Part shown: piece after piece, positions 10,882 through 60,827 of the stretch
How positions within the stretch are numbered: the stretch's first letter is position 1
Layout of the letters: the number at the start of each line of letters is the position of its first letter
Source: Pyrinomonadaceae bacterium
GTDB lineage: Bacteria > Acidobacteriota > Blastocatellia > Pyrinomonadales > Pyrinomonadaceae
Reading direction: 5' to 3'
DNA length: 64,000 nucleotides
Assembly: GCA_043768465.1 (NCBI GenBank)
Contig: JAYVKL010000045.1
Coordinates: forward strand, 342-64,341
Made by a program: the position numbers and the translations under genes
The notes under the pieces: model-generated
Database searches by the model: none
What the model saw: only the letters and a program-made list of their open reading frames with translations
What the model was told of the DNA's origin: nothing

Positions 10882-11862
10882 TTAATCGGCGAAATTCAAT
10901 CGCACTCGAATCGCTTCCTTTTCGTGCGGTGTGCCGAAAATTTCCGGGTGAAAAATCTTCGCTAAAATCTCCGCGCCGTCCACGATTCTCGGCGCGGGGC
11001 GCGAAAAATACGCGCTCGCGTCAACCGCCCAAACATTATTATTTACGACGGCGGGCAAATCTCGCCAGTTCGCCGGAAACGCGGTTTGCGGAAGTTGGCG
11101 CACGATGTCGGCGATGTAATAACCGCACGGAATCAACACTAAAATCTCCGGTTGAGATTCGTAAATCGCCGCGTAGGTTGTCGTCAGCGACTTTTTTCCC
11201 GCTTCGCCCAGTAGCGGAAAGCCGCCCGCAAGTTTGGTTTGTTCGGGAACCCAATGTCCGGGCGCGAACGGCGGCTCTAGCCATTCGAGCATAAAAACGC
11301 GCGGCTGTTTTAACTTGGAATTTGGAGTTTGGAATCTGGAATTCTCTTCGTCTTCGCGGATGCGATTTTGAATTACATTGAGGCGATTCTGTAAATTTTC
11401 GACGACTGATTTTCCTTTTTCAGGAACGCCGCACAATTCGGCGACGGTTTTTATGTTGTCCAAAACGTCGGCAATCGTGTTCGGCTCAAGCGAAAGAACG
11501 GTCGCGTCGCTGACAGACATTTTCGCCGCCTTCTGCACGGTTTTATACGAGACGGCGCAAACTTCGCAGAGTTCCTGCGTGATGATTATATCCGGTTTTA
11601 GCTCGCGTAAAAGCGATTCGTTTAAGTCGTAAATCGAACCGTGTCCGTCCAAATTCGAGCGGACGGCGTGGTCAATTTCCGCGCTCGACATCGTTTCGTG
11701 CGAAAGTCGGCTCGCCGTCAAAGCCGGGCGGTCGGCGATTGATTCGGGAAAATCGCATTCGTGCGTAATGCCGACGAGATTGCTCTCCAAACCTAAAGCG
11801 CAGATGATTTCCGTTGCCGACGGCAGCAGTGAAACGATTTTTAATGATGAACTTTTCGTCAT
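10882..11862 (-). CDS. Cobalamin/siderophore-type periplasmic-binding-fold protein without signal peptide
   Basis: 326 aa. SLLPSATEIICALGL ... LVGITHECDFP is typical of the BtuF/FhuD fold (PF01497-like). No signal peptide is visible. The inter-lobe linker carries a heptamer-tract-encoded peptide (SRFQTPNSKLKQ, DNA 11314-11344). Confidence 0.7.
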   Translation of the reverse strand: MTKSSSLKIVSLLPSATEIICALGLESNLVGITHECDFPESIADRPALTASRLSHETMSSAEIDHAVRSNLDGHGSIYDLNESLLRELKPDIIITQELCEVCAVSYKTVQKAAKMSVSDATVLSLEPNTIADVLDNIKTVAELCGVPEKGKSVVENLQNRLNVIQNRIREDEENSRFQTPNSKLKQPRVFMLEWLEPPFAPGHWVPEQTKLAGGFPLLGEAGKKSLTTTYAAIYESQPEILVLIPCGYYIADIVRQLPQTAFPANWRDLPAVVNNNVWAVDASAYFSRPAPRIVDGAEILAKIFHPEIFGTPHEKEAIRVRLNFAD

Positions 11863-13695: not shown

Positions 13696-13768
13696 AATGG
13701 TAAATGGTAAATGGTAAATGGTAAATACAAGATTCATATTTACCATTTACCATTTACCATTTGCCATT
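13696..13768. repeat. 73-nt hairpin: 32-bp stem of GGTAAAT heptamers, 9-nt loop
   Basis: Left arm 13696-13727 is aatggtaaatggtaaatggtaaatggtaaata. The right arm 13737-13768 is its complement with one G.T position. Loop is caagattca. It fills the ImmA-like/PP2C spacer. Confidence 0.9.
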
Positions 13769-13772
13769 TGAA

Positions 13773-14408: not shown

Positions 14409-14523
14409 AAAGGTCAAAGGTAAAAGGTCAAAGGCTTATCAAATCGTTTGATCGTTAATTTGATTTCAGAGATGACTTTTCAACGTTCATCATTTTGACG
14501 TTCTTACCTTTGACCTTTGACCC
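14409..14523. repeat. Hairpin with AAAGGTC heptamer arms and ~65-nt loop
   Basis: aaaggtcaaaggtaaaaggtcaaagg ... cttacctttgacctttgaccc, in the divergent ImmA-like/pgsA spacer. Confidence 0.7.
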
Positions 14524-21444: not shown

Positions 21445-21655
21445 CGCGGAAGTGGTTTCGGTAATAAACAAGCCGCGTAAAGTTCCCGACTTTGCGATTT
21501 TAGATTTTAGATTTTGGATCGGAAGATTCGCCAACTCTAAATCTGAGCCACTGAAATCAAACAATCCAAAATCCAAAATCGGTAATCTAAAATCGCCTTC
21601 ACGGTTGCGTGGGCAGTCGCGGATTTGCGCCGCGTTCCTTTGCGCCGGTTGCTCG
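21445..21655 (-). promoter_or_regulatory. Cobalamin riboswitch (leader of the TonB receptor gene)
   Basis: Minus-strand reading gives aaaGGAAcgcGGCGcaAATCCgcgaCtGcCCaCGCAACcGTGaagg. A long hairpin follows at 21496-21594, then the B12-box-like AAAGTCGGGAAC... This parallels the riboswitch at 24600-24806. Confidence 0.7.
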
Positions 21656-22586: not shown

Positions 22587-23561
22587 TTAATTCTTCCTCA
22601 ATAAATAAATAAACAACGGCGCACCGATTAGAGCGGTAATCGCGCCGACGGGCAATTCACGCGGCGCGATTGCCGTTCGCGCCATCGTGTCCGCCGCGAC
22701 GACGAAAACCGCGCCCGCCAATGCCGAAAACGGAATCACCAGACGATTATCGCTGCCAATCGTCAGACGAATCAGATGCGGCACAATCAGCCCGACGTAA
22801 CCGACCGAACCGCTCGCTGCAACCGAAATGCCGACGAGTGCCGAAGCCGTCGTGAAAACAATCAGGCGAACTTTACTGGTTTCCACGCCGAAATCGAAGG
22901 CATCGCGCTCGCCGATCATCATCAAATTCAACGCTTTCGCCTGCGAAGATAAAATAATCGTCCCGCCAATCGCGCAGATCAGAGTCGTGTAAAATCCGTT
23001 TTTCGTCGCTTGCGACAAATCGCCGAGCAGCCAGAACGTAAACGAGCGTAGTTTTGCCGCGTCCAAAAGCGTCGTCAGCAAAACCAGAATCGAAGACAAA
23101 AACGTCGTCACGATCACGCCCGCTAAAACGAGGCGTTCGACGCTCATTCCGGCGCGGCTTTTCGCCATTTGATAAACCGTCAAAGTCGCCAAACCTGCGC
23201 CGGCGATGGCGAAAATCGGACGCGCCCAAGCGGAATCGGCAAAGAAAACAAAAGCCAGCATCGTTCCCAAAGCCGCGCCGTTCGACACGCCCAACAGATA
23301 CGGCTCCGCCAAAGGATTCCGCAAAAGCGATTGCAGCGACGCGCCCGCCAACGCCAGACTCGCCCCGACGGCTCCGCCGAGCAAAACTCGCGGCAGACGA
23401 ATATCAAAAAGAATCGTCTGCTGATTCTCGTCCAATTCAAAGAACGCGAGCTTTTCACTGCCAAATAAAACGGCAATCGTCAAAACAATCAACAGCAAAA
23501 TCAGGAGACCAACGCCAAAACGCCAACCTCGAACCTTGAACCTTGAACCTTGAATTTTCAC
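22587..23561 (-). CDS. FecCD/BtuC-family ABC permease
   Basis: Typical BtuC pattern (LPRVLLGGAVGASLALAGASLQSLLRNPLAEPYLLGVS). Start placed at GTG 23561, which overlaps the upstream stop as GTGA. The first codons are encoded by GGTTCAA heptamers (KIQGSRFKVRGWRF). Confidence 0.85.
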   Translation of the reverse strand: MKIQGSRFKVRGWRFGVGLLILLLIVLTIAVLFGSEKLAFFELDENQQTILFDIRLPRVLLGGAVGASLALAGASLQSLLRNPLAEPYLLGVSNGAALGTMLAFVFFADSAWARPIFAIAGAGLATLTVYQMAKSRAGMSVERLVLAGVIVTTFLSSILVLLTTLLDAAKLRSFTFWLLGDLSQATKNGFYTTLICAIGGTIILSSQAKALNLMMIGERDAFDFGVETSKVRLIVFTTASALVGISVAASGSVGYVGLIVPHLIRLTIGSDNRLVIPFSALAGAVFVVAADTMARTAIAPRELPVGAITALIGAPLFIYLLRKN

Positions 23562-24599: not shown

Positions 24600-24806
24600 C
24601 CAAACGTCCTGACGCGGGACGATTTTCGGCTAAAAAACTTCAGACAGGTTTCCAGACTTTGCAATTAGCAGTCATCAGTTAGCAGTTATCATAAAATCAA
24701 AATGATAACTGCTAGCTGATGACTGCTAATTGCTTCACTGTGGCGCGACCGTGCGGGATTGACACCCGACTTTCCCATATCTTTGCCGCTTTTTTCAAAA
24801 AGCGGC
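24600..24806 (-). promoter_or_regulatory. Cobalamin riboswitch (leader of the btuF/C/D-like operon)
   Basis: Minus-strand reading gives GGGAAagtcGGGTGtcAATCCcgcaCgGtCgCGCCACaGTGaagc. A 73-nt hairpin follows at 24661-24733, then the B12 box AAAGTCTGGAAACCTGTC (24660-24641). Downstream is a terminator-like stem ctgcctt...aaggcag plus U-run (~24490-24535). Confidence 0.8.
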
Positions 24807-24977
24807 GCATCCGAAGCGTTTTAGGCTGAAAAGAACAAACCGAAATTTACCGACGAATCTGTAAATAAGGTGAAAGGCAACTTAGCACGATGAATCGTCA
24901 CAAGTCAAAAGCAATCGAATTTTGCGCTGATTTTGCTTGATCTTCGGCTTCGCTTGCGGCTATCCTGAAAAGGTCGA

Positions 24978-29145: not shown

Positions 29146-30144
29146 CTAAACATTCAAACGACTGCGATGCTTTTCGATTTTGTCCAATACGCCCAACGCC
29201 AAACTCAAGGCGCGTCTGCCGTCTTCGGCGGTAATCGGCGGCGTTTTATCATTGGTGATGCAATCCAAAAACGCCGTAATTTCGGCGCGGAGCGGTTCGA
29301 CATCAACGATTTCCAAGCGATTGACCGAGATTCCGAGTAGCGGATGAATCGCGTTCGGCGCGAGTGATGTCACGGACGCGAATTTCGTCGCGTAATCTAA
29401 AACGACGTAAGAATTCGTTTGATAAAAGCGCGTTTTGCGAATCTTTTCCGTGCCGATTCTGGAAGCCGTGATGTTGGCGACCGCGCCGTTTTCAAACTCG
29501 ATGCGGGCGTTCGCAGCATCAACTTTGTCGGAAATAACCGGAATGCCGACGGCGTGAATTTCGGAAACTTTGACATCTTCGCCGACCAGCCACTGAACCG
29601 CGTCCAAATCGTGAATCATCACGTCCAACACGACATCAACATCCAAACTGCGATTCGGAAATGGCGAAACGCGATGAATCTCGAAATATAACGGGCGATC
29701 AACGTGCGGGCGCAGCGCGATCATCGCCGGATTGAATCTTTCCAAATGCCCGACCATCAGTTTCGCGCCGGATTTGGCGGCGGCGGCAATCATCAAATCG
29801 GCTTCATCCAGAGTTTTCGCAAACGGCTTTTCGACCAATACGTTCACACCGTTTTCGAGAAACGCGCAGGCGATTTCGCAATGCGTTTCAGTCGGCGTAA
29901 CGATGGAAACCGCATCAACTTTACCAATCATTTCGCGCCAATCGGTGAAAAACGCGCAGTTGTTTTTCTCGCCAATCGAACGCGCATTTTCTTCGTGTTT
30001 ATCGCAAACGCCGACGAATTCACTGTCGCCGTTTTGAGCGATTTCCGCGTAATTGCGGGCGTGATGCTGACCGAGCGAGCCGACCCCGACGACGGCGGTT
30101 TTTTGAATCTGGAATTTGGAATCTGGAATCTGTATTTCGTGCAT
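29146..30144 (-). CDS. Gfo/Idh/MocA-family NAD(P)-dependent oxidoreductase
   Basis: Rossmann motif VVGVGSLGQHHARNY, EKPFAKTLDEADLM and a C-terminal GFO_IDH_MocA_C-like region. The first 14 codons are encoded by GGAATCT-type heptamers (HEIQIPDSKFQIQ). Confidence 0.85.
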   Translation of the reverse strand: MHEIQIPDSKFQIQKTAVVGVGSLGQHHARNYAEIAQNGDSEFVGVCDKHEENARSIGEKNNCAFFTDWREMIGKVDAVSIVTPTETHCEIACAFLENGVNVLVEKPFAKTLDEADLMIAAAAKSGAKLMVGHLERFNPAMIALRPHVDRPLYFEIHRVSPFPNRSLDVDVVLDVMIHDLDAVQWLVGEDVKVSEIHAVGIPVISDKVDAANARIEFENGAVANITASRIGTEKIRKTRFYQTNSYVVLDYATKFASVTSLAPNAIHPLLGISVNRLEIVDVEPLRAEITAFLDCITNDKTPPITAEDGRRALSLALGVLDKIEKHRSRLNV

Positions 30145-30236: not shown

Positions 30237-31988
30237 ATGACGGAAAATCCAAAATCCAAAATCCAAAATCCAGGATCCAGAATCCTTTGGCTGCTGTTCG
30301 CGTTGCTGATTGTCTTCGTCTATTTTTTCGGCTTGACGCTTCCGCTGTTGGGTCCCGACGAACCGCGTTACGCGCAGGTCGCCCGCGAAATGTATTTGCG
30401 CGGCGATTGGATTACGCCGACGCTCGGCGGTTTCGACTGGTTTGAAAAACCCGCGCTGCTTTACTGGCTCGAAATCGCGTCGTATAAAATCTTCGGCGTT
30501 TCGGAGTTTGCGGCGCGTTTCGGTTCGGCGGTTTTCGGGTTGGGAACGATTGCCTGTTTGTGGATTTTGGGGAAATCGGTTTCAGGTTTCAGGTTTCAGG
30601 TTTCAGGTGAAAAGATAGAAATCCTAAAGCAAACGTCTGAAATTCAGAAACCAGAAACCAGAGACCTGGAACCAGAAACCAGAAACCTGAAACCTGAAAC
30701 CAGAAACCTGAAACCTGAAACCTCCGTTTTTGCCAATTGGCTGGCTTTGATCGCCGCGTCATCAATTGGTTTGATCGTCTTTTCACGCGGCGCGAGTTTC
30801 GATATTATCCTCACTTTTCCGATTACCGCTGCGCTGGTTTGCTATTTTCTTTTTGAATCTTTGCTCCAAAAGCATTATTTTTGCGCCGTCCCGAATTCAA
30901 TTGTTCTTTCGAAATCTACGGCGGCAAACCTGATCGCTGCCGCGCCGCCGATTGCCTGGGCGAGCTTGTTTCTCGCCGGTTTTTACTTTTTTATCGGTTT
31001 CGCATTGCTTGCCAAAGGCCTGATCGGGTTGATTTTCCCGCTTACCATCGTGTTTTTTTATCACCTTCTGAAGTTTGAACTGCTGCCGGGCAAAGTATTT
31101 CTCATCAGTCTGATTTGGGGAACGATTATCAGTTTGCTCGTCGCGTCAATCTGGTATCTGCCGATGTATCGGGCGCACGGCTGGAAGTTCGTGGACGAGT
31201 TTTTTATCCAGCATCAATTTCAGCGTTTCACGTCCGACAAATATCAGCATCAGCAGCCGTTCTGGTTTTTCTTCGTCGTTCTGCCGCTGATGACTTTGCC
31301 GTGGCTGCCGTTTTTTCTGGCTTCGATCTGGAATTTTTTCAAGGTTCAAGGTTCAAGGTTTAAAGTTCAAAGTTCAAGATTTAATGTTCAAGGTTCAAAT
31401 AATCTCTCGACTCTCGACTCTCGCCTCGCTCCTTTCGCCTTCGCGTGGCTCGCCGTGCCGCTCGTTTTTTTCTCGCTTTCCGGCTCGAAACTTCCCGGCT
31501 ATATTTTGCCGGCACTGCCCGGCGCAATCGTTTTAACGGCGATTTATGTGGCTGATTTTGTGCGGAAATCGCGGACGCGAACGCGTGTTTTGCAGATTGC
31601 GGCAGCTTCGACTTTTCTATTCGTCTTCGTCGGTCTGCAATTTTTCGCGGCGGATTATACAAATTACGAAACCGTCAAAAATATGATTGCGGCGGCGGAT
31701 GCCAAAGGCTTTGCCGATGCCGAATTCGTCAGTCTCTACACGGTTTCGCACAATCTCGAATTCTACGCCGCCGGCAGATTAGAACGCGACGCGGACGGCA
31801 AACTCAAACGCTACGACGATTTTTCCGTGTTGATAAAAGCGGTCAAAACGGCAGGCGACCAACGAATTTTAGTCGTCGTGCCGCAAGCCAATGTGCCGAA
31901 TCTGCAAAAGGAAAACGACTTGGCGGACATCGAAACGATTGCCGAAAACGGCGAATCAGCGATTATCTTGATTAAGCCGAAACGGTAA
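30237..31988 (+). CDS. Glycosyltransferase family 39 (ArnT/PMT-like) membrane protein
   Basis: GPDEPRYAQVAREMYLRGDWITP signature and more than 10 TM helices. Carries three heptamer-tract-encoded segments (N-terminus, 30577-30725 and 31340-31429). Confidence 0.8.
   Translation: MTENPKSKIQNPGSRILWLLFALLIVFVYFFGLTLPLLGPDEPRYAQVAREMYLRGDWITPTLGGFDWFEKPALLYWLEIASYKIFGVSEFAARFGSAVFGLGTIACLWILGKSVSGFRFQVSGEKIEILKQTSEIQKPETRDLEPETRNLKPETRNLKPETSVFANWLALIAASSIGLIVFSRGASFDIILTFPITAALVCYFLFESLLQKHYFCAVPNSIVLSKSTAANLIAAAPPIAWASLFLAGFYFFIGFALLAKGLIGLIFPLTIVFFYHLLKFELLPGKVFLISLIWGTIISLLVASIWYLPMYRAHGWKFVDEFFIQHQFQRFTSDKYQHQQPFWFFFVVLPLMTLPWLPFFLASIWNFFKVQGSRFKVQSSRFNVQGSNNLSTLDSRLAPFAFAWLAVPLVFFSLSGSKLPGYILPALPGAIVLTAIYVADFVRKSRTRTRVLQIAAASTFLFVFVGLQFFAADYTNYETVKNMIAAADAKGFADAEFVSLYTVSHNLEFYAAGRLERDADGKLKRYDDFSVLIKAVKTAGDQRILVVVPQANVPNLQKENDLADIETIAENGESAIILIKPKR
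30577..30725. repeat. Heptamer-arm hairpin (GGTTTCA / TGAAACC) lying in frame inside the GT39 CDS
   Basis: cggtttcaggtttcaggtttcaggtttcaggtg ... cagaaaccagaaaccagagacctggaaccagaaaccagaaacctgaaacctgaaaccagaaacctgaaacctgaaacc. It translates as [11 protein letters not shown]...KPETRDLEPETRNLKPETRNLKPET. Confidence 0.9.
31340..31429. repeat. Tandem GGTTCAA-type heptamers plus CTCTCGA units, in frame inside the GT39 CDS
   Basis: caaggttcaaggttcaaggtttaaagttcaaagttcaagatttaatgttcaaggttcaaat...ctctcgactctcgactctcgc. It translates as KVQGSRFKVQSSRFNVQGSNNLSTLDSRL. Confidence 0.85.
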
Positions 31989-32301: not shown

Positions 32302-33282
32302 TCAATTTTGCGCCGCCCGTTTCAATCTGTCCGTTAAAGCCGCGCCGATTCCCGCATCCGCCACTGTTTCGCAATAAATCGTCTTGATATTCCGTCGGTC
32401 GCATTCCCGAAAAAAGGCGAAAACTTCGTGCGCGTATTCGTCAACCGACGCGCAAATTTTCACCGAATCAAACGGCTGATGCGGTTCATTTAATCCGATA
32501 AACGCGCTTGATCTGGAATCTGAAATCTGAAATCTGGAATCTGGAATTAAAACTACTCGCGCCGTCGGCGAATAATGACGATGTTTCAAACCCGGACTTT
32601 TCGGCGTTTCATCATTTCCGGCTTGATAATTTCGCGTTTCTGGAACGATCCTCTGCAAATCGCGCAGTGAAATCGCGCCGCTTCGCAAAACCAGAGGCGC
32701 GTTCGCAGTGCAGTCAACGACGGTTGACTCCAATCCGATTTCCGTCATTGCTCCCTTCAGAATGCAGTCAATCACACCGTCTAAATCTTCAAACACGGCT
32801 TGCCACGTCGTCGGCGAAGGCTTGCCCGAAAGATTTGCCGACGGCGCAACAATTGGCGTTTCGCAAGCCGTCAGGAATTCCCGCGCCAGTTCACTGCGCG
32901 GCATTCGCACGCCGATTGTTTCGAGATTCGCCGTCGCAAGCAAAGGCACTCGCGCCGCTTTCGGTAACACTAAAGTCAAAGGCGCGGGGAAAAACGCCGC
33001 GATAAACTTCTCCGCCGACGGCGTAACTTCGGAAACAAGAAGCTTGATTTGTTCCAGACTTCCGACGTGCGCGATCAGCGGATTATCGTTCGGTCGCCGT
33101 TTCGCCGCAAAAATTTTAGCAATCGCCGCCGCATCGAAAACATCTGCGCCCAAACCGTAAACCGTTTCGGTCGGAAACGCGACGATGCCGCCGCTTTTAA
33201 TAAATTCGGCGGCTTCAGTCGGCGATTCGGTTAGGACGGTTTTCATTTTCACAGTTAAAACTTTTACGACTTCATTATCCAT
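32302..33282 (-). CDS. L-threonylcarbamoyladenylate synthase (Sua5/YwlC type, YrdC domain + Sua5 C-domain)
   Basis: GGIVAFPTETVYGLGADVFD and IAHV motifs. The inter-domain linker contains the heptamer-encoded IPDSRFQISDSRSS (DNA 32510-32547). An alternative start is ATG 33246 (MKTVLTES...). Confidence 0.85.
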   Translation of the reverse strand: MDNEVVKVLTVKMKTVLTESPTEAAEFIKSGGIVAFPTETVYGLGADVFDAAAIAKIFAAKRRPNDNPLIAHVGSLEQIKLLVSEVTPSAEKFIAAFFPAPLTLVLPKAARVPLLATANLETIGVRMPRSELAREFLTACETPIVAPSANLSGKPSPTTWQAVFEDLDGVIDCILKGAMTEIGLESTVVDCTANAPLVLRSGAISLRDLQRIVPETRNYQAGNDETPKSPGLKHRHYSPTARVVLIPDSRFQISDSRSSAFIGLNEPHQPFDSVKICASVDEYAHEVFAFFRECDRRNIKTIYCETVADAGIGAALTDRLKRAAQN

Positions 33283-33335
33283 TATCCATTATCCGTTTTC
33301 CATTTCGCCGCCGCTTTCGTTAAAGTTTATAGAAG

Positions 33336-33450
33336 TTACGCGAGTTGAAAATTAAAGGGATATTTTAACAGGATGGACAGGATGAACAGGATCAGCAGAC
33401 AATTCGGCAAGTCTCCTGTCCATCCTGTTAGTTTTCTTTCAACTGCATAA
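33336..33450. repeat. Rep-C element copy 2
   Basis: TTACGCGAGTTGAAaattaaagggatattttaacaggatggacaggatgaacaggat...ctcctgtccatcctgttagttttcTTTCAACTGCATAA. The interior is a CAGGATG-unit hairpin. Confidence 0.75.
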
Positions 33451-35303: not shown

Positions 35304-37373
35304 CTAAGAATTTTGATCCTCAGCATATTTAATTGTTAACTCATCTTCAAAATCGAACAGTTGCAAAGCGTATTTTAGCCTATCGAATTTTACGGTGTTA
35401 CTTAAATGCGACTCAATAGAGTAAGTATCATTCAGTTGAACAGGTTGTCTTAAATTGTTTTCAGCAAGATTTTTAGTCAAGCCAATTTTCTCACCTAAAC
35501 CTGTAGTAAAAAATGTTTCAGGCTGCAATTCAAATAACTGTTTGCATATCTCTAAATAAAGTTTGGTAATTTCTCTGACTTCAATTTTTTGATCGAGAAA
35601 AATCGCATAATCTAATTTTTTATGAGTTGGGTCATCAGCATCGAAAATGCTAACTTCACCATTGCTTAGTTCATCTAAAATAGTAATTGCAGGAATTTGC
35701 CAAACTTTTAAAAATCTTTTAGCGATCAAATCGGAACGCTTTTCTATTTCAGCCTTGTCCCATTTTTCCAGACTTGCAAGGTATTTATTGAGCCAAAGCC
35801 GACTGTCTTTATATCCGGCATTCTCCAAATCTCTTTTGAAGGAAAATGTTTTATTGCTTAATTTTCCGTTATTACCGGACAAAGTTAAATTTCCGACTGT
35901 GTTTAAGTAATTCTCTTTGATGAACTTGTGATCCTCCGCGCCTATCTCCGTTTTCCATTTTGGATCAGGATTTTGTGGAAAAATATGTTCAATTGTTATG
36001 TCAGAATTATCATCAATAACAACCGGCTCTTTATTCTGGAAATTTTCCAACCGTTCAAGCAAGTATGTTCTGTTCTTTGCTTTGATGTTGTAAACGTCTT
36101 TTTCTTTGAGAGCATTTATTGTTTCAGTATCTCTTGGAAAACGACTATTGCCAATCAATTTAAGCAACGCTTTCTGAACAGAATACAAATAGTTTTCTTT
36201 TTCAACTTTGTCGTAAAGCGTCATAAAGATTTTGTTTCTACCTTCCGTTCCAAATCCGACAATAAATCTTCGCCAAGTGAATGACTGCACCAAATCCAAA
36301 ATTGAAACAAAAGTCGGCTTGTCAATAATAGAGTTTGCGTAATCTTCATATACTTTCATCAAAAAAGGGTAGGCGACGTTTATTTCCAACCGATTAATAT
36401 ACTCAAGTTGAATTCTTATGTCCTTATCCGGTTCATTTTGTGGGTTAATTAACTTGTTGTAATACTTAACCAATGACTTGATTTTTAACAAAACATCCTC
36501 CAATTGTGCAATTGAGGATGTTGGATATTTTGATTTAAATTCAAGATAAACTTTTCCTTTGTTCGGAATTTTGTTGTTTTCAAGCGTTAAGTAATCACGG
36601 ATAAAATCTGACACTCGACTAAGGTTTGAAGTTTCATCTTTAGCCAGTTTCTCGATGACTTCCCAGTAATTTTGGTAAATCAAGTTTTGGTCTCTTCTAT
36701 TTAACCCGATCAAAATATAATTGCGAATCAAATCCGCCGGCGATAATGTCAAACCAGTAGAATTTAGGCTCTCAAAGATTCTTTGCGGATTATCTTTTTC
36801 TCTATCGAGCGAAACTTCAACGAACATTAGTTTTGATAAGCCCGCCAAAACTGTCTTATAGTTTTCTTCATTTATTCTTCCCTTAAAATAATCAAAGTTA
36901 TCGGTTATTTTTGAGTAATCATTATATTCTTCAGTCTGATCGCTTCTGAGTAGATACTTTAAGGCTCGGTCGTTGTTATCTGTCGGTCTGAGTTTTAACT
37001 TTTCTTCCTCACGAGCAAACTTGTTAATTAAATACGTTTCACTTATTTCGCTGACAAGTTCATCGTCTTTCAATTCGATTGCCAAACTATAGATGGCTAA
37101 ATAAATTAATGTCAGCGTCGTTAATCTTTGCTGTCCGTCAATAATTGTAAGTTCCTTGATTCTCGAAGTTATGTAATCGTCATCGTGAACATAAACTATA
37201 CTTCCAATAAAATGAGCATTCATCTCACTACTCACTCCAACTTCAAAAATGTCATCAAGTAGTTGTTTACAATGGCTTGGAGACCAATCATAATTCCTTT
37301 GATAAACAGGAATTACAAACTGAGTTTTGTTAGAAGACAAGAAATCTTCGACTTTTGTTTCATTAGCTTTCAT
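35304..37373 (-). CDS. GmrSD-like DUF262 + DUF1524 protein (putative type IV, modification-dependent restriction endonuclease)
   Basis: N-terminal DUF262 motifs FVIPVYQRNYDWS and IIDGQQRLTTL. C-terminal His-Me/HNH-like DUF1524 (ITIEHIFPQNP ... VGNLTLSGNNGKLSNKTF). The DNA is visibly AT-rich. Confidence 0.8.
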   Translation of the reverse strand: MKANETKVEDFLSSNKTQFVIPVYQRNYDWSPSHCKQLLDDIFEVGVSSEMNAHFIGSIVYVHDDDYITSRIKELTIIDGQQRLTTLTLIYLAIYSLAIELKDDELVSEISETYLINKFAREEEKLKLRPTDNNDRALKYLLRSDQTEEYNDYSKITDNFDYFKGRINEENYKTVLAGLSKLMFVEVSLDREKDNPQRIFESLNSTGLTLSPADLIRNYILIGLNRRDQNLIYQNYWEVIEKLAKDETSNLSRVSDFIRDYLTLENNKIPNKGKVYLEFKSKYPTSSIAQLEDVLLKIKSLVKYYNKLINPQNEPDKDIRIQLEYINRLEINVAYPFLMKVYEDYANSIIDKPTFVSILDLVQSFTWRRFIVGFGTEGRNKIFMTLYDKVEKENYLYSVQKALLKLIGNSRFPRDTETINALKEKDVYNIKAKNRTYLLERLENFQNKEPVVIDDNSDITIEHIFPQNPDPKWKTEIGAEDHKFIKENYLNTVGNLTLSGNNGKLSNKTFSFKRDLENAGYKDSRLWLNKYLASLEKWDKAEIEKRSDLIAKRFLKVWQIPAITILDELSNGEVSIFDADDPTHKKLDYAIFLDQKIEVREITKLYLEICKQLFELQPETFFTTGLGEKIGLTKNLAENNLRQPVQLNDTYSIESHLSNTVKFDRLKYALQLFDFEDELTIKYAEDQNS

Positions 37374-37397
37374 ATTTATTCTATTTTGTAAGTGAAT

Positions 37398-37652
37398 TTA
37401 AGTGTGTTTCTCAGGCAGGAGCGCAATCAAACCGCGCAGAGCGTTGTTGACCGCTTTCGTGTCGGGAAAATATACTTTCACGTCTTCGTCAAGAAAAATC
37501 GGGCGCGTTTCTTTGATAACGGTTGAGCCGTCCGATTGATGAATAATCGTCGTGTAACCGTTTTTCATCGCCTCATAATACTTTCCGCGAATACCTTTTT
37601 TGCCGCAAAAATCGTATTCGGCTCGCATTTCGTCTTTAGGATTGTTCTTCAT
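37398..37652 (-). CDS. BrnA-like antitoxin
   Basis: 84 aa. Overlaps the BrnT stop by 17 nt. AEYDF..KKGIRGKY and the C-terminal IFLDEDVKVYFPDTKAVNNALRGL resemble BrnA-family antitoxins. Confidence 0.55.
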   Translation of the reverse strand: MKNNPKDEMRAEYDFCGKKGIRGKYYEAMKNGYTTIIHQSDGSTVIKETRPIFLDEDVKVYFPDTKAVNNALRGLIALLPEKHT

Positions 37653-38004
37653 AAATCTTTCTCTCTAAAACAGTCGCGTTACGGCAACTGATAATTCTAA
37701 TCGAAATTTCGCCGCCGTTAACGGAAACTTCCGTGTGAACGACGAGCAGAATGCGATTGACACTTGAAAGACCGATGCTGATAGATATTTCTTCTCCAAT
37801 CGAATGAAATTCGTCGGCGAATGTTACAAGCAGCAGATCGTTGAAAACCGTTTCGGCTTCGTCAAAATCAATTTTATGTTTTCGCAGATTCGCTTTCGCT
37901 TTATTTTCGTCCCATTCAAAAATCACTCTGCCATTATATGACAGAATCTTACTGCAATCTACAAATTCATTTTCCTCATATAGGCGCGAAGACAGCTTGC
38001 CCAA
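37636..38004 (-). CDS. BrnT-family (DUF497) toxin
   Basis: FEWDENKAKANLRKHKIDFDEAETVFND is the BrnT signature. A GTG at 37926 (xIFEWDE...) is a plausible alternative start. Confidence 0.8.
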   Translation of the reverse strand: MGKLSSRLYEENEFVDCSKILSYNGRVIFEWDENKAKANLRKHKIDFDEAETVFNDLLLVTFADEFHSIGEEISISIGLSSVNRILLVVHTEVSVNGGEISIRIISCRNATVLERKIYEEQS

Positions 38005-43164: not shown

Positions 43165-43313
43165 AGCGTGTTTGGAAATTCAAAAGGATTGGCAATTTTG
43201 CATTTTACATTCTTCATTCTAAATTTTTATCCGGTAAAAATTAAAAATGTAAAATGAAGAATGTAAAATTAAGCCGTCAACTTTTCGACCGAACGACTTT
43301 CCAAACACGCCCT
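43163..43313. repeat. Rep-B element, intact ~151-bp copy
   Basis: TIRs are AGAGCGTGTTTGGAAA ... TTTCCAAACACGCCCT. The core hairpin is aattttgcattttacattcttcattctaaattttt-atccgg-taaaaattaaaaatgtaaaatgaagaatgtaaaatt, built from TACATT-type heptamers. Confidence 0.8.
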
Positions 43314-46006: not shown

Positions 46007-46128
46007 TTAAGCAGTTGAAAAATTAAGGGCATATTTTAACAGGATGAACAGGATTAACCGACAATTCGTCAAATCTCTTTTATCCTGTCTGTCCTGTCCA
46101 TCCTGTAAATTTTCTTTCAATTGCGTAA
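46007..46128. repeat. Rep-C element copy 3
   Basis: TTAAGCAGTTGAAaaattaagggcatattttaacaggatgaacaggat...cctgtctgtcctgtccatcctgtaaattttcTTTCAATTGCGTAA. The interior is homologous to copy 2. Confidence 0.75.
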
Positions 46129-55406: not shown

Positions 55407-55415
55407 AAAACATTT

Positions 55416-55486
55416 AGCCACAGAGATCACAGGGATCACCGAGAAAAATTTATAAACTCTCTGTGATCTCTGTGATCTCTGTGGCT
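55416..55486. repeat. Hairpin with ~9-nt tandem units (CACAGAGAT / ATCTCTGTG)
   Basis: agccacagagatcacagggatcaccgag - loop - ctctgtgatctctgtgatctctgtggct. ~29 bp with 2 mismatches, in the rsfS-rlmH spacer. Confidence 0.8.
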
Positions 55487-55986: not shown

Positions 55987-56691
55987 CTAAATGTAAAGTT
56001 CGTATTTTTCGACGTATTTTGCAACCTCGTCCGGCACGAGTTCGCGCCAATCTGTTTGATTATCACGAATTTTCTGTCGAATCTCCGTTGCCGAAACGTC
56101 GAGATTGACGGCATCGGTGAGGTAAATTTTAGTTTCTCGCTTCTCGTTTCTCGTTTCTCGCTTTCCATCTGAAACCTGAAACCTGAAACCTGAAACCTGT
56201 CCGCGTAAATCAACGATTCGGGCGCGAATCGCTTCCGTCACCTGTGAAAATTCGATTTCGTAATCGGGGCGCGTGACGACGATGATATTGGTCTGCGTTA
56301 AAACCGTTTCCCACTCGCGCCAGGTCGTGATTTCCGTCCAGGAGTCCGCGCCGATGACAAAGTAGATTTCCGCGTCGGGCAAATTATTTACCAATTTCGC
56401 CTGCGTTTCAAACGTAAAAGGCTTTTCGGGAGCGTCGAGTTCGATGGTGGAAATTTCAATTTTAGCTTCGTTCGCCGTCGCCAGACAAAGCATCGCGTAT
56501 CGGTGAAACGCCGAAGTCGGCTGGCGGTCTTTTTTGTGCGGCGCGTGAAAAGCCGGAATGAAAACGAATCGGTCGAGCGCGAATAATTCGATTGTTTTTC
56601 GCGCAATCGCCAAATGTCCGTTGTGAAGCGGATCAAACGAGCCGCCGTAAAACGCGATGCGCCCATGTTTCACCGATTTGTTAAAATTCAT
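55987..56691 (-). CDS. nadD: Nicotinate-nucleotide adenylyltransferase
   Basis: [15 protein letters not shown] (HxGH) and the C-terminal DVSATEIR (ISST-like). Start placed at ATG 56691, with GTG 56673 also possible. Contains a ~25-aa heptamer-encoded insert. Confidence 0.9.
56133..56199. repeat. Two adjacent heptamer tracts (TTTCTCG x4, CTGAAAC x4) in frame inside nadD
   Basis: tttctcgcttctcgtttctcgtttctcgctttcc + atctgaaacctgaaacctgaaacctgaaacctg. Translated on the minus strand as [25 protein letters not shown]. The second tract matches the right arm of the hairpin at 58279-58351. Confidence 0.9.
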
Positions 56692-58267: not shown

Positions 58268-58278
58268 AATTCTGTTCA

Positions 58279-58351
58279 GGTTTCAGGTTTCAGGTTTCAG
58301 GTTTCAGATTGCATTTTCCAATCTGAAACCTGAAACCTGAAACCTGAAACC
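58279..58351. repeat. 73-nt perfect hairpin: 32-bp stem of GGTTTCA heptamers, 9-nt loop
   Basis: 58279-58310 is ggtttcaggtttcaggtttcaggtttcagatt. 58320-58351 is its exact reverse complement. Loop is gcattttcc. It occupies most of the 96-nt rplU-rpmA spacer. Confidence 0.95.
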
Positions 58352-58734: not shown

Positions 58735-59392
58735 ACGCGGACAAAATATCCGTCAAGAAAAATTCACCGGTAAATGATATTTTCTCGCCTCGAACGGCGC
58801 GTTAGTAAATACGGAGACCGAGTTTGTCAGCCGACGGTGAAAAATTATGCGAATGCGATGACCTGCCAAAAGCCGCAGATATTTTAATGCTCGAATTATT
58901 TCTGAAATCCGAGCAGTTTTACAAGTATTTTTCATCATCGTGATTTTTATTTGGCAGTCTTTGACTTTGACTGAAGATTTTCGGGTTGCTGGTCCTGAAT
59001 TCAGCGCGTCAAAAACAGCACCGGATTATGAAAAAACTTCGATTTATTTTTTATTACATCAAACTGCGTTCGAGCGTTATGCTCGGCTTTCACCAAACGA
59101 GTTATCCGCTGAACTTGAAATGGCATTGGAAGTTCTGGAAATATCAGGAGAAACAGCGCAGCGGTCGTTGAGACCGATTCTTGTCCCGGTAGTTTTTTCG
59201 CGGCGTTCCCGGTCAGCTTTTTCAAATACTTCTTTCCCTGATCTTTTCCGCTCTTCAACCGAAAATTGACAGCTTTTCGTCCCGGCGCATCTTCATTTAT
59301 TTTTTAGAGCGTGTTTGAAAATTCAAAAAAGACCGGCAATTTTACATTTTACATTCTAAATTTTTATCCGGTAAAAATTTAGAATGTCGAAT

Positions 59393-60613
59393 AGGGCAAA
59401 CGCATTAAAATTTTAGAATTTTCAGCAGGTAACTTTCGTCCCAACCGGCTTTCAGGCGTTTGCTCTTGATTCCTTGTTTGCAACTTTTTTCTTGTTTCAG
59501 CAGATTTATTCCTAAATGCCTGATAATTGCCGGATTTTCTGCCGCATTGCCCGTCCGTGTCCGGCATTCATCTTCTCGAAACCCGATCTCTAAACACCAA
59601 TGCAACTCGTTTTCAATTGCCCAATGTCCTCTCACGGCGCGTAAGGCTTCTTTTGCATTTGCCCCTAAACTGCTGATGAAATATCGCCTTTCGACCGTTT
59701 TCTCGCCGCCGATAACTTCTCTGACAGCCTCGACCATAATCACACTTTTCAGATTTTTCCAGTCTTCTCGTTTCTCCAACCACTGGATTTCTTCGGTTAT
59801 CCAACACCGTCTTTGCTCGATTCGCCCGTGTCCTTTTTCCAATGTTTCACAGTAATCAAACGCTATCTCCCGGAATTTTGTGCGCTCCACCCAATCCAAA
59901 TAATCTTTAATGTCCTGATGTAAATTGCCTTGATTGCCTTTCAAGCTAATGACATAATCCGCGTCTTTTTCCGCTATTTCTTTGACGATCTCTTTTTGAC
60001 AACCCATCGCGTCAATCGTCACGATACAACCGGCAATCTCGATGATTTTTAACAGTTCGGGAATCGCCGTAATCTCGTTCGATTTATCTTCACACTTGAT
60101 TTGTCCCAACCCCACCGATTGCTCACTTGCCCACGCGCTGACCATATTTAACGCTTCTTTGCCGCTTGGCGTTGTCTTACTCCGTCGAATTACTTTCCCG
60201 TCAATGTTCACTAATTGCCCCGCACTCAAACTGACCGCCGAGCGAATCCATTCCAAAAACGATGTCTTTAACTCGTCCGCATCCAACAAAATAAACACCC
60301 GCCGAAAGGTGTCAGGCGACGGAATTCCGTTTTCCAACTCCAAAAACGAGGCTCACCATTCGCGTTTAGCGTGTCCGAATTCCTCGATGTCTTCCCAAGT
60401 TTCCGCCGCACAAATCATCGCACAAACCGCAATCACCAGAATATCCACCAACAGATGCCGCTGATGCTGCTCAATACGCGGGTCTTTGATAGCTGATATA
60501 TTTTCAAATAACGTCTTTACTTTTAATTGTCCCAAGTCATTGCTCCCATTTAGTAAATCTAAATGAAAGTTTGACACATCTTCTCTTTCTACAAAATTTA
60601 ATGCGTAAGCCCT
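59393..60613 (-). mobile_element. ISAs1-family insertion sequence (~1.22 kb)
   Basis: Terminal IRs AGGGCAAACGCATTAAAATTTT / AAAATTTAATGCGTAAGCCCT. Flanked by the direct repeat AGAATGTCGAAT (59381-59392 and 60614-60625). The duplication is 10-12 bp, depending on where the IR starts. Confidence 0.85.
59405..60577 (-). pseudogene. ISAs1-family (H-repeat-like) DDE transposase interrupted by one in-frame TGA
   Basis: The N-terminal 74 aa (...DPRIEQHQRHLLVDILVIAVCAMICAAETWEDIEEFGHAKREW) stop at TGA 60355-60353. The same frame continues ASFLELENGIPSPDTFRRVF ... DKSNEITAIPELL ... TIDAMGCQKEI ... RYFISSL ... HWAIENELHW. Confidence 0.8.
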
Positions 60614-60827
60614 AGAATGTCGAATGTAAAATGTAAAATTAAGCCGTCCAATTTTCGACTAGGTGAATTTCCAAACACGCTCTGATAAAAATCCGCCGGC
60701 AAGATCCGAATTAAACGCGGACGAACGCCGAGAGACACGGATAAAAGCAAAAAACTCAGAGAAAAATCGGCGTTCGTCCGCGTTTACGGGCGGTTAAATT
60801 TCCTTGTTTTTGATTTTCACGAGCGGT

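Follow-up and report, generated by a model that had tools for sequence, protein, structure and literature searches.

A translated heptanucleotide-repeat hairpin in a GT39-type glycosyltransferase gene from a Pyrinomonadaceae bacterium, and the repeat population to which it probably belongs

Introduction

Tandem repeats with units of seven nucleotides are over-represented in bacteria, as exemplified by the short tandemly repeated repetitive (STRR) sequences of the heterocystous cyanobacteria (Mrazek et al. 2007, as cited in PMC4679880 and PMC4692102). The subject of this report is a 64,000-nucleotide stretch of DNA from a Pyrinomonadaceae bacterium (GenBank assembly GCA_043768465.1, contig JAYVKL010000045.1, positions 342 to 64,341 of the forward strand), hereafter referred to as the window. 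Within it, the gene for a predicted GT39-type membrane glycosyltransferase contains a hairpin whose two arms are inverted tandem arrays of the heptamers GGTTTCA and TGAAACC. We consider it probable that slippage drives a population of heptamer arrays, of which this tract is one copy that is translated and tolerated, and that selection has filtered such copies for reading frame, stop codons, and hydropathy.

From what the two sources relate of the STRR sequences, the arrays in the window resemble them in several respects, namely the head-to-tail tandem copies of a 7-nt unit (from a few to tens), the over-representation of period 7, the enrichment in non-coding DNA, and slippage as the proposed origin. 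They differ in that many units occur per genome and in that a large share lies in frame in housekeeping proteins at orthologous, family-wide sites. The GGGAATC repeats of Xanthomonas and the GGGGAYT repeats of Nostoc (PMC4692102) also form heptamer arrays, some of them inverted pairs capable of adopting stem-loops, and they occupy the same intergenic positions in related species with highly variable lengths and sequences. Those repeats are G-quadruplex-prone and essentially intergenic, whereas the units described here are diverse (many different heptamers per genome), A/T-rich, not G-quadruplex-forming, and translated. The TAACTGA repeats of the marine Beggiatoaceae (PMC4679880), which show a patchy phylogenetic distribution and have no known transfer mechanism, provide another parallel: their reading in three phases yields a peptide with a periodicity of seven residues, and stop codons in one orientation restrict where they can lie. 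Unlike the present arrays, they are built from a single unit, lie mostly 5' of start codons, and are almost never inverted, and their in-frame translation is discussed as a possibility.

The palindromic elements of Rickettsia (Ogata et al. 2000, as described in PMC10969869) are in-frame palindromes found in unrelated metabolic genes at fold-compatible positions, and the GT39 tract is likewise a hairpin repeat in frame at a structurally permissive position. According to that description, the Rickettsia elements form consensus families of ~150 bp with a conserved peptide. Here the heptamer arms alone are shared, the unit number varies, and no full-length consensus was found, the loops being unrelated among the three GGTTTCA copies in the window and 33 hairpins listed from metagenomes. 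The repetitive extragenic palindromic (REP) sequences and bacterial interspersed mosaic elements (BIMEs) are imperfect extragenic palindromes of 20-40 nt accompanied by a REP-associated tyrosine transposase (RAYT), whereas the arms in question consist of units in tandem and not of one palindrome. The phase-variable heptanucleotide repeats of Haemophilus (PMC8262952) are likewise short tandem repeats that gain and lose copies by slippage. They differ from the present arrays, for which no on/off alleles were found, which reside in housekeeping genes, and whose observed variants all preserve the frame. The literature searched contained no account of heptamer repeats in Acidobacteria. To our knowledge, the over-representation of heptanucleotides, although recognized since 2007, has no accepted explanation and has received almost no follow-up. 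The present case stands apart from these systems by uniting heptamer arms in tandem with a wide variety of units and with placement in frame, at orthologous positions, in housekeeping proteins.

Results

The host gene extends from 30237 to 31988 on the forward strand and encodes 583 residues; the same open reading frame (ORF) is called in the public assembly of the source contig. The protein gives a weak match to PMT_2, and its orthologues, which are named GT39 in their sources, match PF13231 and PF02366. The best Foldseek matches for the AlphaFold model are the ArnT structures 5f15 and 5ezm (E = 3e-13, TM scores of 0.58-0.63). The N-terminal DE-containing loop that characterizes the GT-C fold is present, and the GPDEPRY motif is conserved in GT39. 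On these grounds, the protein is predicted to be an ArnT-like GT-C (GT39/PMT_2-type) membrane glycosyltransferase.

The left, or 5', arm of the hairpin (30578-30608, forward strand) contains 4.4 copies of GGTTTCA with 100% matches, according to Tandem Repeats Finder (TRF), and is translated as SGFRFQVSG. The loop, delineated from the fold and the sequence, is a unique 36-nt spacer (30609-30644, forward strand; EKIEILKQTSEI) that resembles none of the loops in other GGTTTCA hairpins. The right, or 3', arm (30645-30723, forward strand) is formed by 11 CWGAAAC units of the TGAAACC/AGAAACC type (11.1 copies by TRF) and encodes QKPETRDLEPETRNLKPETRNLKPET. The paired segments, 30578-30608 and 30685-30715, are 31 nt in length and 97% complementary, and further registers pair as well (inverted repeats I1-I7). 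When folded as RNA the hairpin has a predicted energy of -64 kcal/mol (z = -8.3), which was equaled by 0 of 200 shuffles, and when folded as DNA the corresponding value is -34.7 kcal/mol (z = -7.2). The ORF continues uninterrupted and in frame across the 31-bp stem. A first-pass annotation of the window had proposed just such an in-frame passage, and the ORF, TRF, the inverted repeats, and the fold all confirm it. The hairpin was not reported in a scan for terminators and promoters and has no terminator-like tail (a G+C-rich stem followed by a U tract). A scan of the whole window against Rfam revealed nothing at the hairpins, the sole matches being one tRNA and one cobalamin riboswitch.

A pure TGAAACC array is expected to bring TGA into frame once every three units. 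The in-frame units of the right arm, which start at 30659, 30680, and 30701, carry AGA in all three cases, and the four units that do contain TGA all fall in the two non-reading phases. This phase pattern gives rise to the 21-nt super-period detected by TRF (92% matches for period 21 versus 87% for period 7). In L001, the closest species in the genome collection (66% protein identity), GGTTTCT and AGAAACC have taken the place of the two arm units, and the resulting hairpin is stop-free in every frame with its pairing complete.

As can be seen from the AlphaFold model of GT39, the predicted local distance difference test (pLDDT) score falls below 50 in three segments, namely residues 1-12, 118-161, and 377-394. 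They coincide exactly with the tracts of the protein, that is, the N-terminus, loop 1 (the hairpin), and loop 2, and they are positioned between or before helices. Loop 2 (31338-31427, forward strand; QGSRFKVQSSRFNVQGSNNLSTLDSRL) is encoded by adjacent, non-complementary arrays identified by TRF, (TTCAAGG)x8.7 followed by (CTCTCGA)x3.4. Residues 215-233 (~30879-30935; CAVPNSIVLSKSTAANLIAAAPP) constitute a fourth low-confidence, indel-rich segment, which only some of the orthologues possess, and in which a heptamer periodicity is not obvious. In the housekeeping protein NadD, the tract adds ~26 residues relative to the solved NadD structures. The positions in GT39 and NadD thus bear out the earlier suggestion that such tracts reside in loops or at termini. 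For those arrays that are stop-free in both directions, the translated strand is the more hydrophilic in 83 of 102 cases and, counting unique units, in 28 of 41 (p = 0.03). No frameshift between the conserved GT39 blocks was found in any of 90 loci (orthologues plus conspecific copies). One locus flagged as frameshifted proved to be a spurious motif match.

The period-7 arrays form a population. There are 27 of them in the window as compared to 0-1 in shuffles, and other periods number 0-7. In 784 kb, comprising 83 related loci and the window, 201 period-7 arrays were counted versus 4-13 for periods 6, 8, 9, 10, and 12, and in this set arrays thin out with increasing divergence of the GT39 orthologue, their density declining from 5.8 to ~0.5 per 10 kb. 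Non-coding DNA makes up 14% of the window and holds 16 of the 27 arrays, a density 8.6-fold greater than that of coding DNA (p = 9e-8); the other 11 are translated. An inverted partner lies less than 200 nt away in 12 of the 27 arrays and a separate direct partner in 1 of the 27. Many of the coding arrays have no partner arm.

Variation between strains was also observed. The 90%-identity protein cluster of GT39 contains a 576-residue member that lacks exactly LEPETRN, such that cluster members differ by 7 aa. The DNA for this allele (L086, L091, and L098, which represent one contig from sample ERZ27280971) is ~99.6% identical to the window over ~23 kb, and it displays a 21-nt, or three-unit, deletion at 30664-30684 in the right arm of the GT39 hairpin. 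Only two indels occur in the ~23 kb, each in a repeat arm: the 21-nt coding deletion and a 17-nt indel at an intergenic 9-mer hairpin (33413). Of 52 single nucleotide polymorphisms (SNPs), 8 fall in arrays, which account for 2.9% of the sequence (p = 1e-4). Five SNPs clustered within 14 nt of the loop-2 array (31406-31419) separate the window from two conspecific strains, with CTCTCGA occurring as three perfect units in the window and in degenerate form in the other strains. In a third strain, L089, two SNPs render the right arm a cleaner CTGAAAC-CTGAAAC-CAGAAAC repeat. Copy number is unchanged between strains at 13696-13770, 14409-14522, and 21496-21580, all non-coding, and at the coding array 23521-23554 of a FecCD-type permease. 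Homologues of the SpoIIE gene in the window were considered as a conspecific continuation and rejected, because the best match is 93% identical and hence not conspecific.

The in-frame deletion, the array SNPs, and the lack of frameshifts point to slippage with a frame filter rather than to on/off phase variation. Selection of the coding copies for frame, stop codons, and hydropathy is supported. The original proposal that the tracts are tolerated when stop-free and frame-preserving is likewise supported, given the in-frame AGA units, the 21-nt variant, the absence of frameshifts in the 90 loci, and the 8.6-fold density in non-coding DNA.

Translated tracts had at first been attributed to at least seven proteins. 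All of those listed are present and in frame, but they belong to six distinct proteins. In addition to GT39 and a GFO/IDH/MocA protein described below, there are four. The NadD loop (56130-56199, reverse strand) is encoded by (GGTTTCA)x4 and then (GAGAAAC)x4, read on the coding strand, according to TRF, and these form a weak hairpin. The Sua5 array (32511-32547, reverse strand; TCCAGAT-type; DSRFQISDSRSS) connects beta1 and beta2 of the Sua5_C domain and is not the inter-domain linker for which it had been taken. In the FecCD/BtuC-like permease (reverse strand; public call of 324 residues), the GGTTCAA array at 23521-23554 encodes KIQGSRFKVRGWRF at the N-terminus, and the tract corresponds to residues 2-14 because the GTG start codon overlaps the upstream stop codon (GTGA). 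Finally, a degenerate ATTCCAA array identified by TRF (11315-11343, reverse strand; SRFQTPNSKLKQ) lies in a BtuF-like periplasmic binding protein of the Peripla_BP_2 family, previously described as a protein with a cobalamin-binding fold. The arrays at 13696-13770 and 14409-14434 are located upstream of true start codons and are non-coding. That at 33271-33294 is ambiguous: the public Sua5 start is at 33282 (326 residues), yet the orthologues contain 314 residues, which points to an internal start at 33246.

The same sites carry arrays in other Pyrinomonadaceae. Loop 1 of GT39 is 6-16 residues long and aperiodic in distant orthologues, 17-56 residues long in closer ones, and 51 residues long here, and the loop-1 arrays of the closer orthologues are built from many different units. 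A strong hairpin in loop 1 (z < -5) is found in ~6 of 81 GT39 loci, with others having two non-complementary arrays. Arrays are also found family-wide in loop 2 and at the N-terminus of GT39, and the N-terminus of the GFO orthologues exists in a long, array-bearing form and in a short form. The NadD orthologues, the lengths of which tend to step by 7 aa, have a hypervariable loop in which the peptide KPETRNL often recurs; a KPETRNL-containing peptide pair is common to GT39 and NadD. In Sua5, the segment measures 10-12 residues and has the same length in distant, array-free orthologues, and close relatives have the same phase but other units, yielding DSRFQIPDSR, NPKSKIQNPK, SSKFKVQSSK, NGKWKVENGK, and SPKSKVQSPK. 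Arrays thus occur at the same orthologous sites in species with 45-75% protein identity. These shared sites with differing units indicate long-lived permissive sites with repeat turnover. The idea of a lineage-specific insertion, consistent with the greater lengths of GT39 loop 1 and NadD, is too simple, in that the same sites bear differing arrays and Sua5 retains an equal length.

One inverted pair is divided between two genes. The N-terminal array of GT39, (AAAATCC)x6 by TRF (30244-30285, forward strand; NPKSKIQNPGSR), and that of the divergently transcribed GFO/IDH/MocA gene (30101-30132, reverse strand; AGATTCC/AAATTCC on the coding strand; IPDSKFQIQ) form the right and left arms, respectively, of an inverted pair flanking the shared promoter, one arm per gene. 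No alternative start codon exists in GFO upstream of the Rossmann strand. In other genomes the two arms change together: they match over 32 of 32 nt in L084 (TTTGGAA), over 30 in L001 (GATTTTG), and over 25 in L041 and L080 (GCGGATT), and the unit in L040 and L085 is TTTGTCC. Scores of 16 or more were obtained for the promoter arms in 21% of genomes as compared to 3.9% of cross-genome pairings. A genome-wide preference for particular units as the cause of this matching was largely rejected, since 13 of the 15 strong promoter pairs match their own partner better than anything else in ~9 kb of the locus. The two arms should not share one transcript, which suggests a process at the level of DNA rather than selection for an RNA hairpin.

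An exact scan for (GGTTTCA)x4.3 yielded at least 120 metagenome contigs (L105-L224) with GC contents of 30-70%. Note that it covered GGTTTCA without a control heptamer and thus says nothing on whether this unit is special. Among the matches listed are 33 GGTTTCA hairpins with loops of 2-224 nt, the loops and flanks of which are unrelated, and the arm length ranges from ~4 to more than 20 units. At least three of these listed arrays are in frame, specifically in an Acyl_transf_3 protein, in a molybdopterin oxidoreductase (between two domains), and in a weakly PMT_2-like membrane protein. One arm is often GGTGTCA and the other TGAAACC, which indicates that each arm is homogenized on its own.

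The non-coding arrays of the window include a near-perfect intergenic hairpin at 58275-58351, with TTCAGGT (GGTTTCA-type) x4.7 opposite CTGAAAC (TGAAACC-type) x4.1 by TRF, a predicted energy of -60.6 kcal/mol, and a spacer of 15 nt, or 11-12 nt between the aligned arms. Upstream of a SpoIIE/GAF gene is the perfect hairpin (AATGGTA)x4.4 / (ATTTACC)x4.6 (13696-13770). Two independent Logan contigs, L099 and L100, stop at window position 13697, the first base of this hairpin, from which it appears that short-read assemblies break at such structures. TRF also identified the inverted pairs AAAGGTC/TTTGACC (14409-14522; 59-nt spacer; non-coding) and GATTTTA/AAAATCC (21496-21580; intergenic).

A second class of hairpins has 9-nt units (GCCACAGAG-NN-CACAGAG), and it is represented by an intergenic hairpin at 55414-55486 (GCCACAGAGATCACAGGG.../...CTCTGTGGC by TRF) and in GT39 loops 1 and 2 of other species. 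Additional 9-nt-unit hairpins, AACAGGATG / CATCCTGT, lie at 33367-33432 and 46038-46106, and one arm of the former is extended by 17 nt in one of two strains that are 99.6% identical. An ISAs1-like insertion sequence (IS; DDE_Tnp_1 plus DDE_Tnp_1_assoc), whose transposase is apparently split over two frames, occupies 59394-60613. The terminal repeats of this IS are AGGGCAAACGCATTAAA / TTTAATGCGTAAGCCCT, its duplication of 13 nt reads TAGAATGTCGAAT, and it is inserted in the right arm of a hairpin element (flanks 59336-59393 and 60614-60645), a near-identical intact copy of which is found at 43193-43278. An origin of the hairpin arms from this IS was rejected, since it has its own terminal repeats and duplication and is itself inserted into a hairpin.

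The cobalamin riboswitch (24626-24829, reverse strand) lies upstream of an operon encoding a BtuF-like protein, a FecCD permease, an ABC ATPase, and a TonB receptor, and a degenerate period-7/14 array (24661-24691) falls within the riboswitch match. A patch of low GC content at 35304-38004 (36% at 36001-38000) encodes a GmrSD-type restriction protein and a BrnT-like toxin pair and is probably an acquired defence islet.

Discussion

According to the explanation favored here, the inverted heptanucleotide pair in GT39 would be one copy of a microsatellite-like population that proliferated in one Pyrinomonadaceae lineage. Array lengths would change by slipped-strand mispairing, with fast homogenization of units within one arm and slower homogenization from arm to arm, the latter probably via template switching or gene conversion between the inverted repeats. 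Most arrays reside in non-coding DNA. Those that survive in genes would do so at disordered loops, strand connections, and termini, provided that their length changes in steps of three units (21 nt, 7 aa), that mutation removes stop codons from the frame (TGA becoming AGA in every third unit of the right arm), and that the translated strand yields a hydrophilic peptide rich in S/K/R/Q/P/N. The data demonstrate the anatomy of the tract, the excess of period 7, the constraint from translation, the in-frame length polymorphism, the sharing of sites with turnover of units, and the co-variation of arms; slippage and template switching are the causal mechanisms that we infer. Given a population-wide origin and a selection filter, the GT39 hairpin would be a tolerated, translated by-product, neither a GT39-specific regulator nor a phase switch.

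Several observations weigh against this explanation. Period 7, arm polarity, and arm co-variation are not accounted for. Among the matches listed from metagenomes, 34 have an inverted partner, and the G/T-rich GGTTTCA arm is the 5' arm in 33 of these. Structural selection could instead lie behind this polarity and the compensated change of both arms in L001. Five other arrays, four of them intergenic, show no difference in copy number between strains, which implies that slippage is not fast. The hairpins at 43193-43278 and 59336-60645 resemble dispersed copies with conserved ends and loop, as does the 9-mer GCCACAGAG family, such that copying between loci must also occur. Finally, L002 and the conspecific L087/L088, which are 99.5% identical elsewhere, have loop-1 arrays of unrelated sequence (CAGTGGT-type versus (AGTTCAA)x5). 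A few extra SNPs separate L002 and L087 within ~60 nt of loop 1, and loop 2 of the same gene contains an array similar to the new one. This pattern implies allele replacement by recombination or ectopic conversion, for which slippage alone is insufficient.

A different possibility, though an unlikely one, is that a polar, DNA-level process operating across many phyla brackets unique DNA with inverted arrays, the G/T-rich arm being placed 5' and the arms being matched across genes. Outside of the GGTTTCA family the polarity is only a trend, 11 versus 4 non-promoter sites by hand count (p roughly 0.1), and the promoter pairs in this count are confounded by coding orientation. If real, this process would give prokaryotes an equivalent of foldback-type repeats, one that continually writes and rewrites 7-aa periodic peptides in the loops and termini of essential proteins.

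We regard as doubtful the notion that the tract is a mobile miniature palindromic element, of the miniature inverted-repeat transposable element (MITE) or Rickettsia type, that was inserted in frame and for which the heptamer arrays serve as terminal inverted repeats. The dispersed copies with common ends and loop, the 9-mer hairpins at unrelated loci (GT39 loops 1 and 2 and intergenic DNA), the KPETRNL peptide pair in both GT39 and NadD, the abundance of (GGTTTCA)n in metagenomes, where some arrays are in frame in proteins, and the exchange of loop 1 between conspecific strains would all accord with mobility. An element of this kind is, however, difficult to reconcile with the unrelated loops and flanks of the 33 listed hairpins, with arms that vary from ~4 to more than 20 units, or with arrays that share orthologous sites among species of 45-75% identity. 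Likewise, one inverted pair is split over two genes around a functional promoter. No target-site duplications were seen by inspection in the flanks of the 33 listed hairpins or of the copies in the window. No partner transposase was found within the window, where the only IS has different terminal repeats and sits inside a hairpin rather than being bounded by one.

It is quite improbable that the hairpin is maintained as a selected nucleic acid structure, for example an mRNA hairpin that sets the pace at which GT39 is translated or inserted in the membrane, or a DNA cruciform that modulates the divergent GFO/GT39 promoter. The great stability of the stem, the complementarity restored on both arms in L001, the co-varying arms flanking the promoter, and the fixed polarity are properties expected of a functional structure. 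Yet the hairpin is missing from most GT39 orthologues, arm length differs between strains that are 99.6% identical, and many coding arrays are without a partner arm. In addition, the promoter arms would not share a transcript, and neither an Rfam match nor a terminator-like tail was detected.

That the tract is a contingency locus, in which the gain or loss of units toggles GT39 and other genes, as the first-pass annotation had raised, is highly improbable. The unit is not a multiple of three nucleotides and polymorphism in unit number does exist, but the sole length variant observed comprises three units and is in frame, none of the 90 GT39 loci is frameshifted, genes such as NadD and Sua5 are housekeeping genes, and the arrays, at 4-11 units, are short and for the most part do not vary from strain to strain. 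An artefact of assembly or gene calling, suggested by the MEGAHIT metagenome origin of the source contig and by the breaks of other assemblies at the perfect hairpin, can be dismissed: the ORF and tract recur in independent assemblies of several samples, arrays occupy the same sites in the long, chromosome-scale assemblies L004, L006, and L084, and the conserved GT39 blocks on either side of the tract share one frame.

With respect to the favored explanation, namely a population of heptamer arrays subject to slippage and filtered in genes, the presence of the same arrays in non-coding DNA and in essential genes allows mutation (slippage and homogenization) to be separated, at single sites, from selection (acting on frame, stop codons, and peptide hydropathy). 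The tracts inflate the apparent divergence of proteins, add low-complexity loops to annotations, and break short-read assemblies at perfect hairpins. In-frame palindromes in proteins, previously reported from one obligate parasite, Rickettsia, are now seen in free-living soil bacteria, and here they occur without a consensus element.

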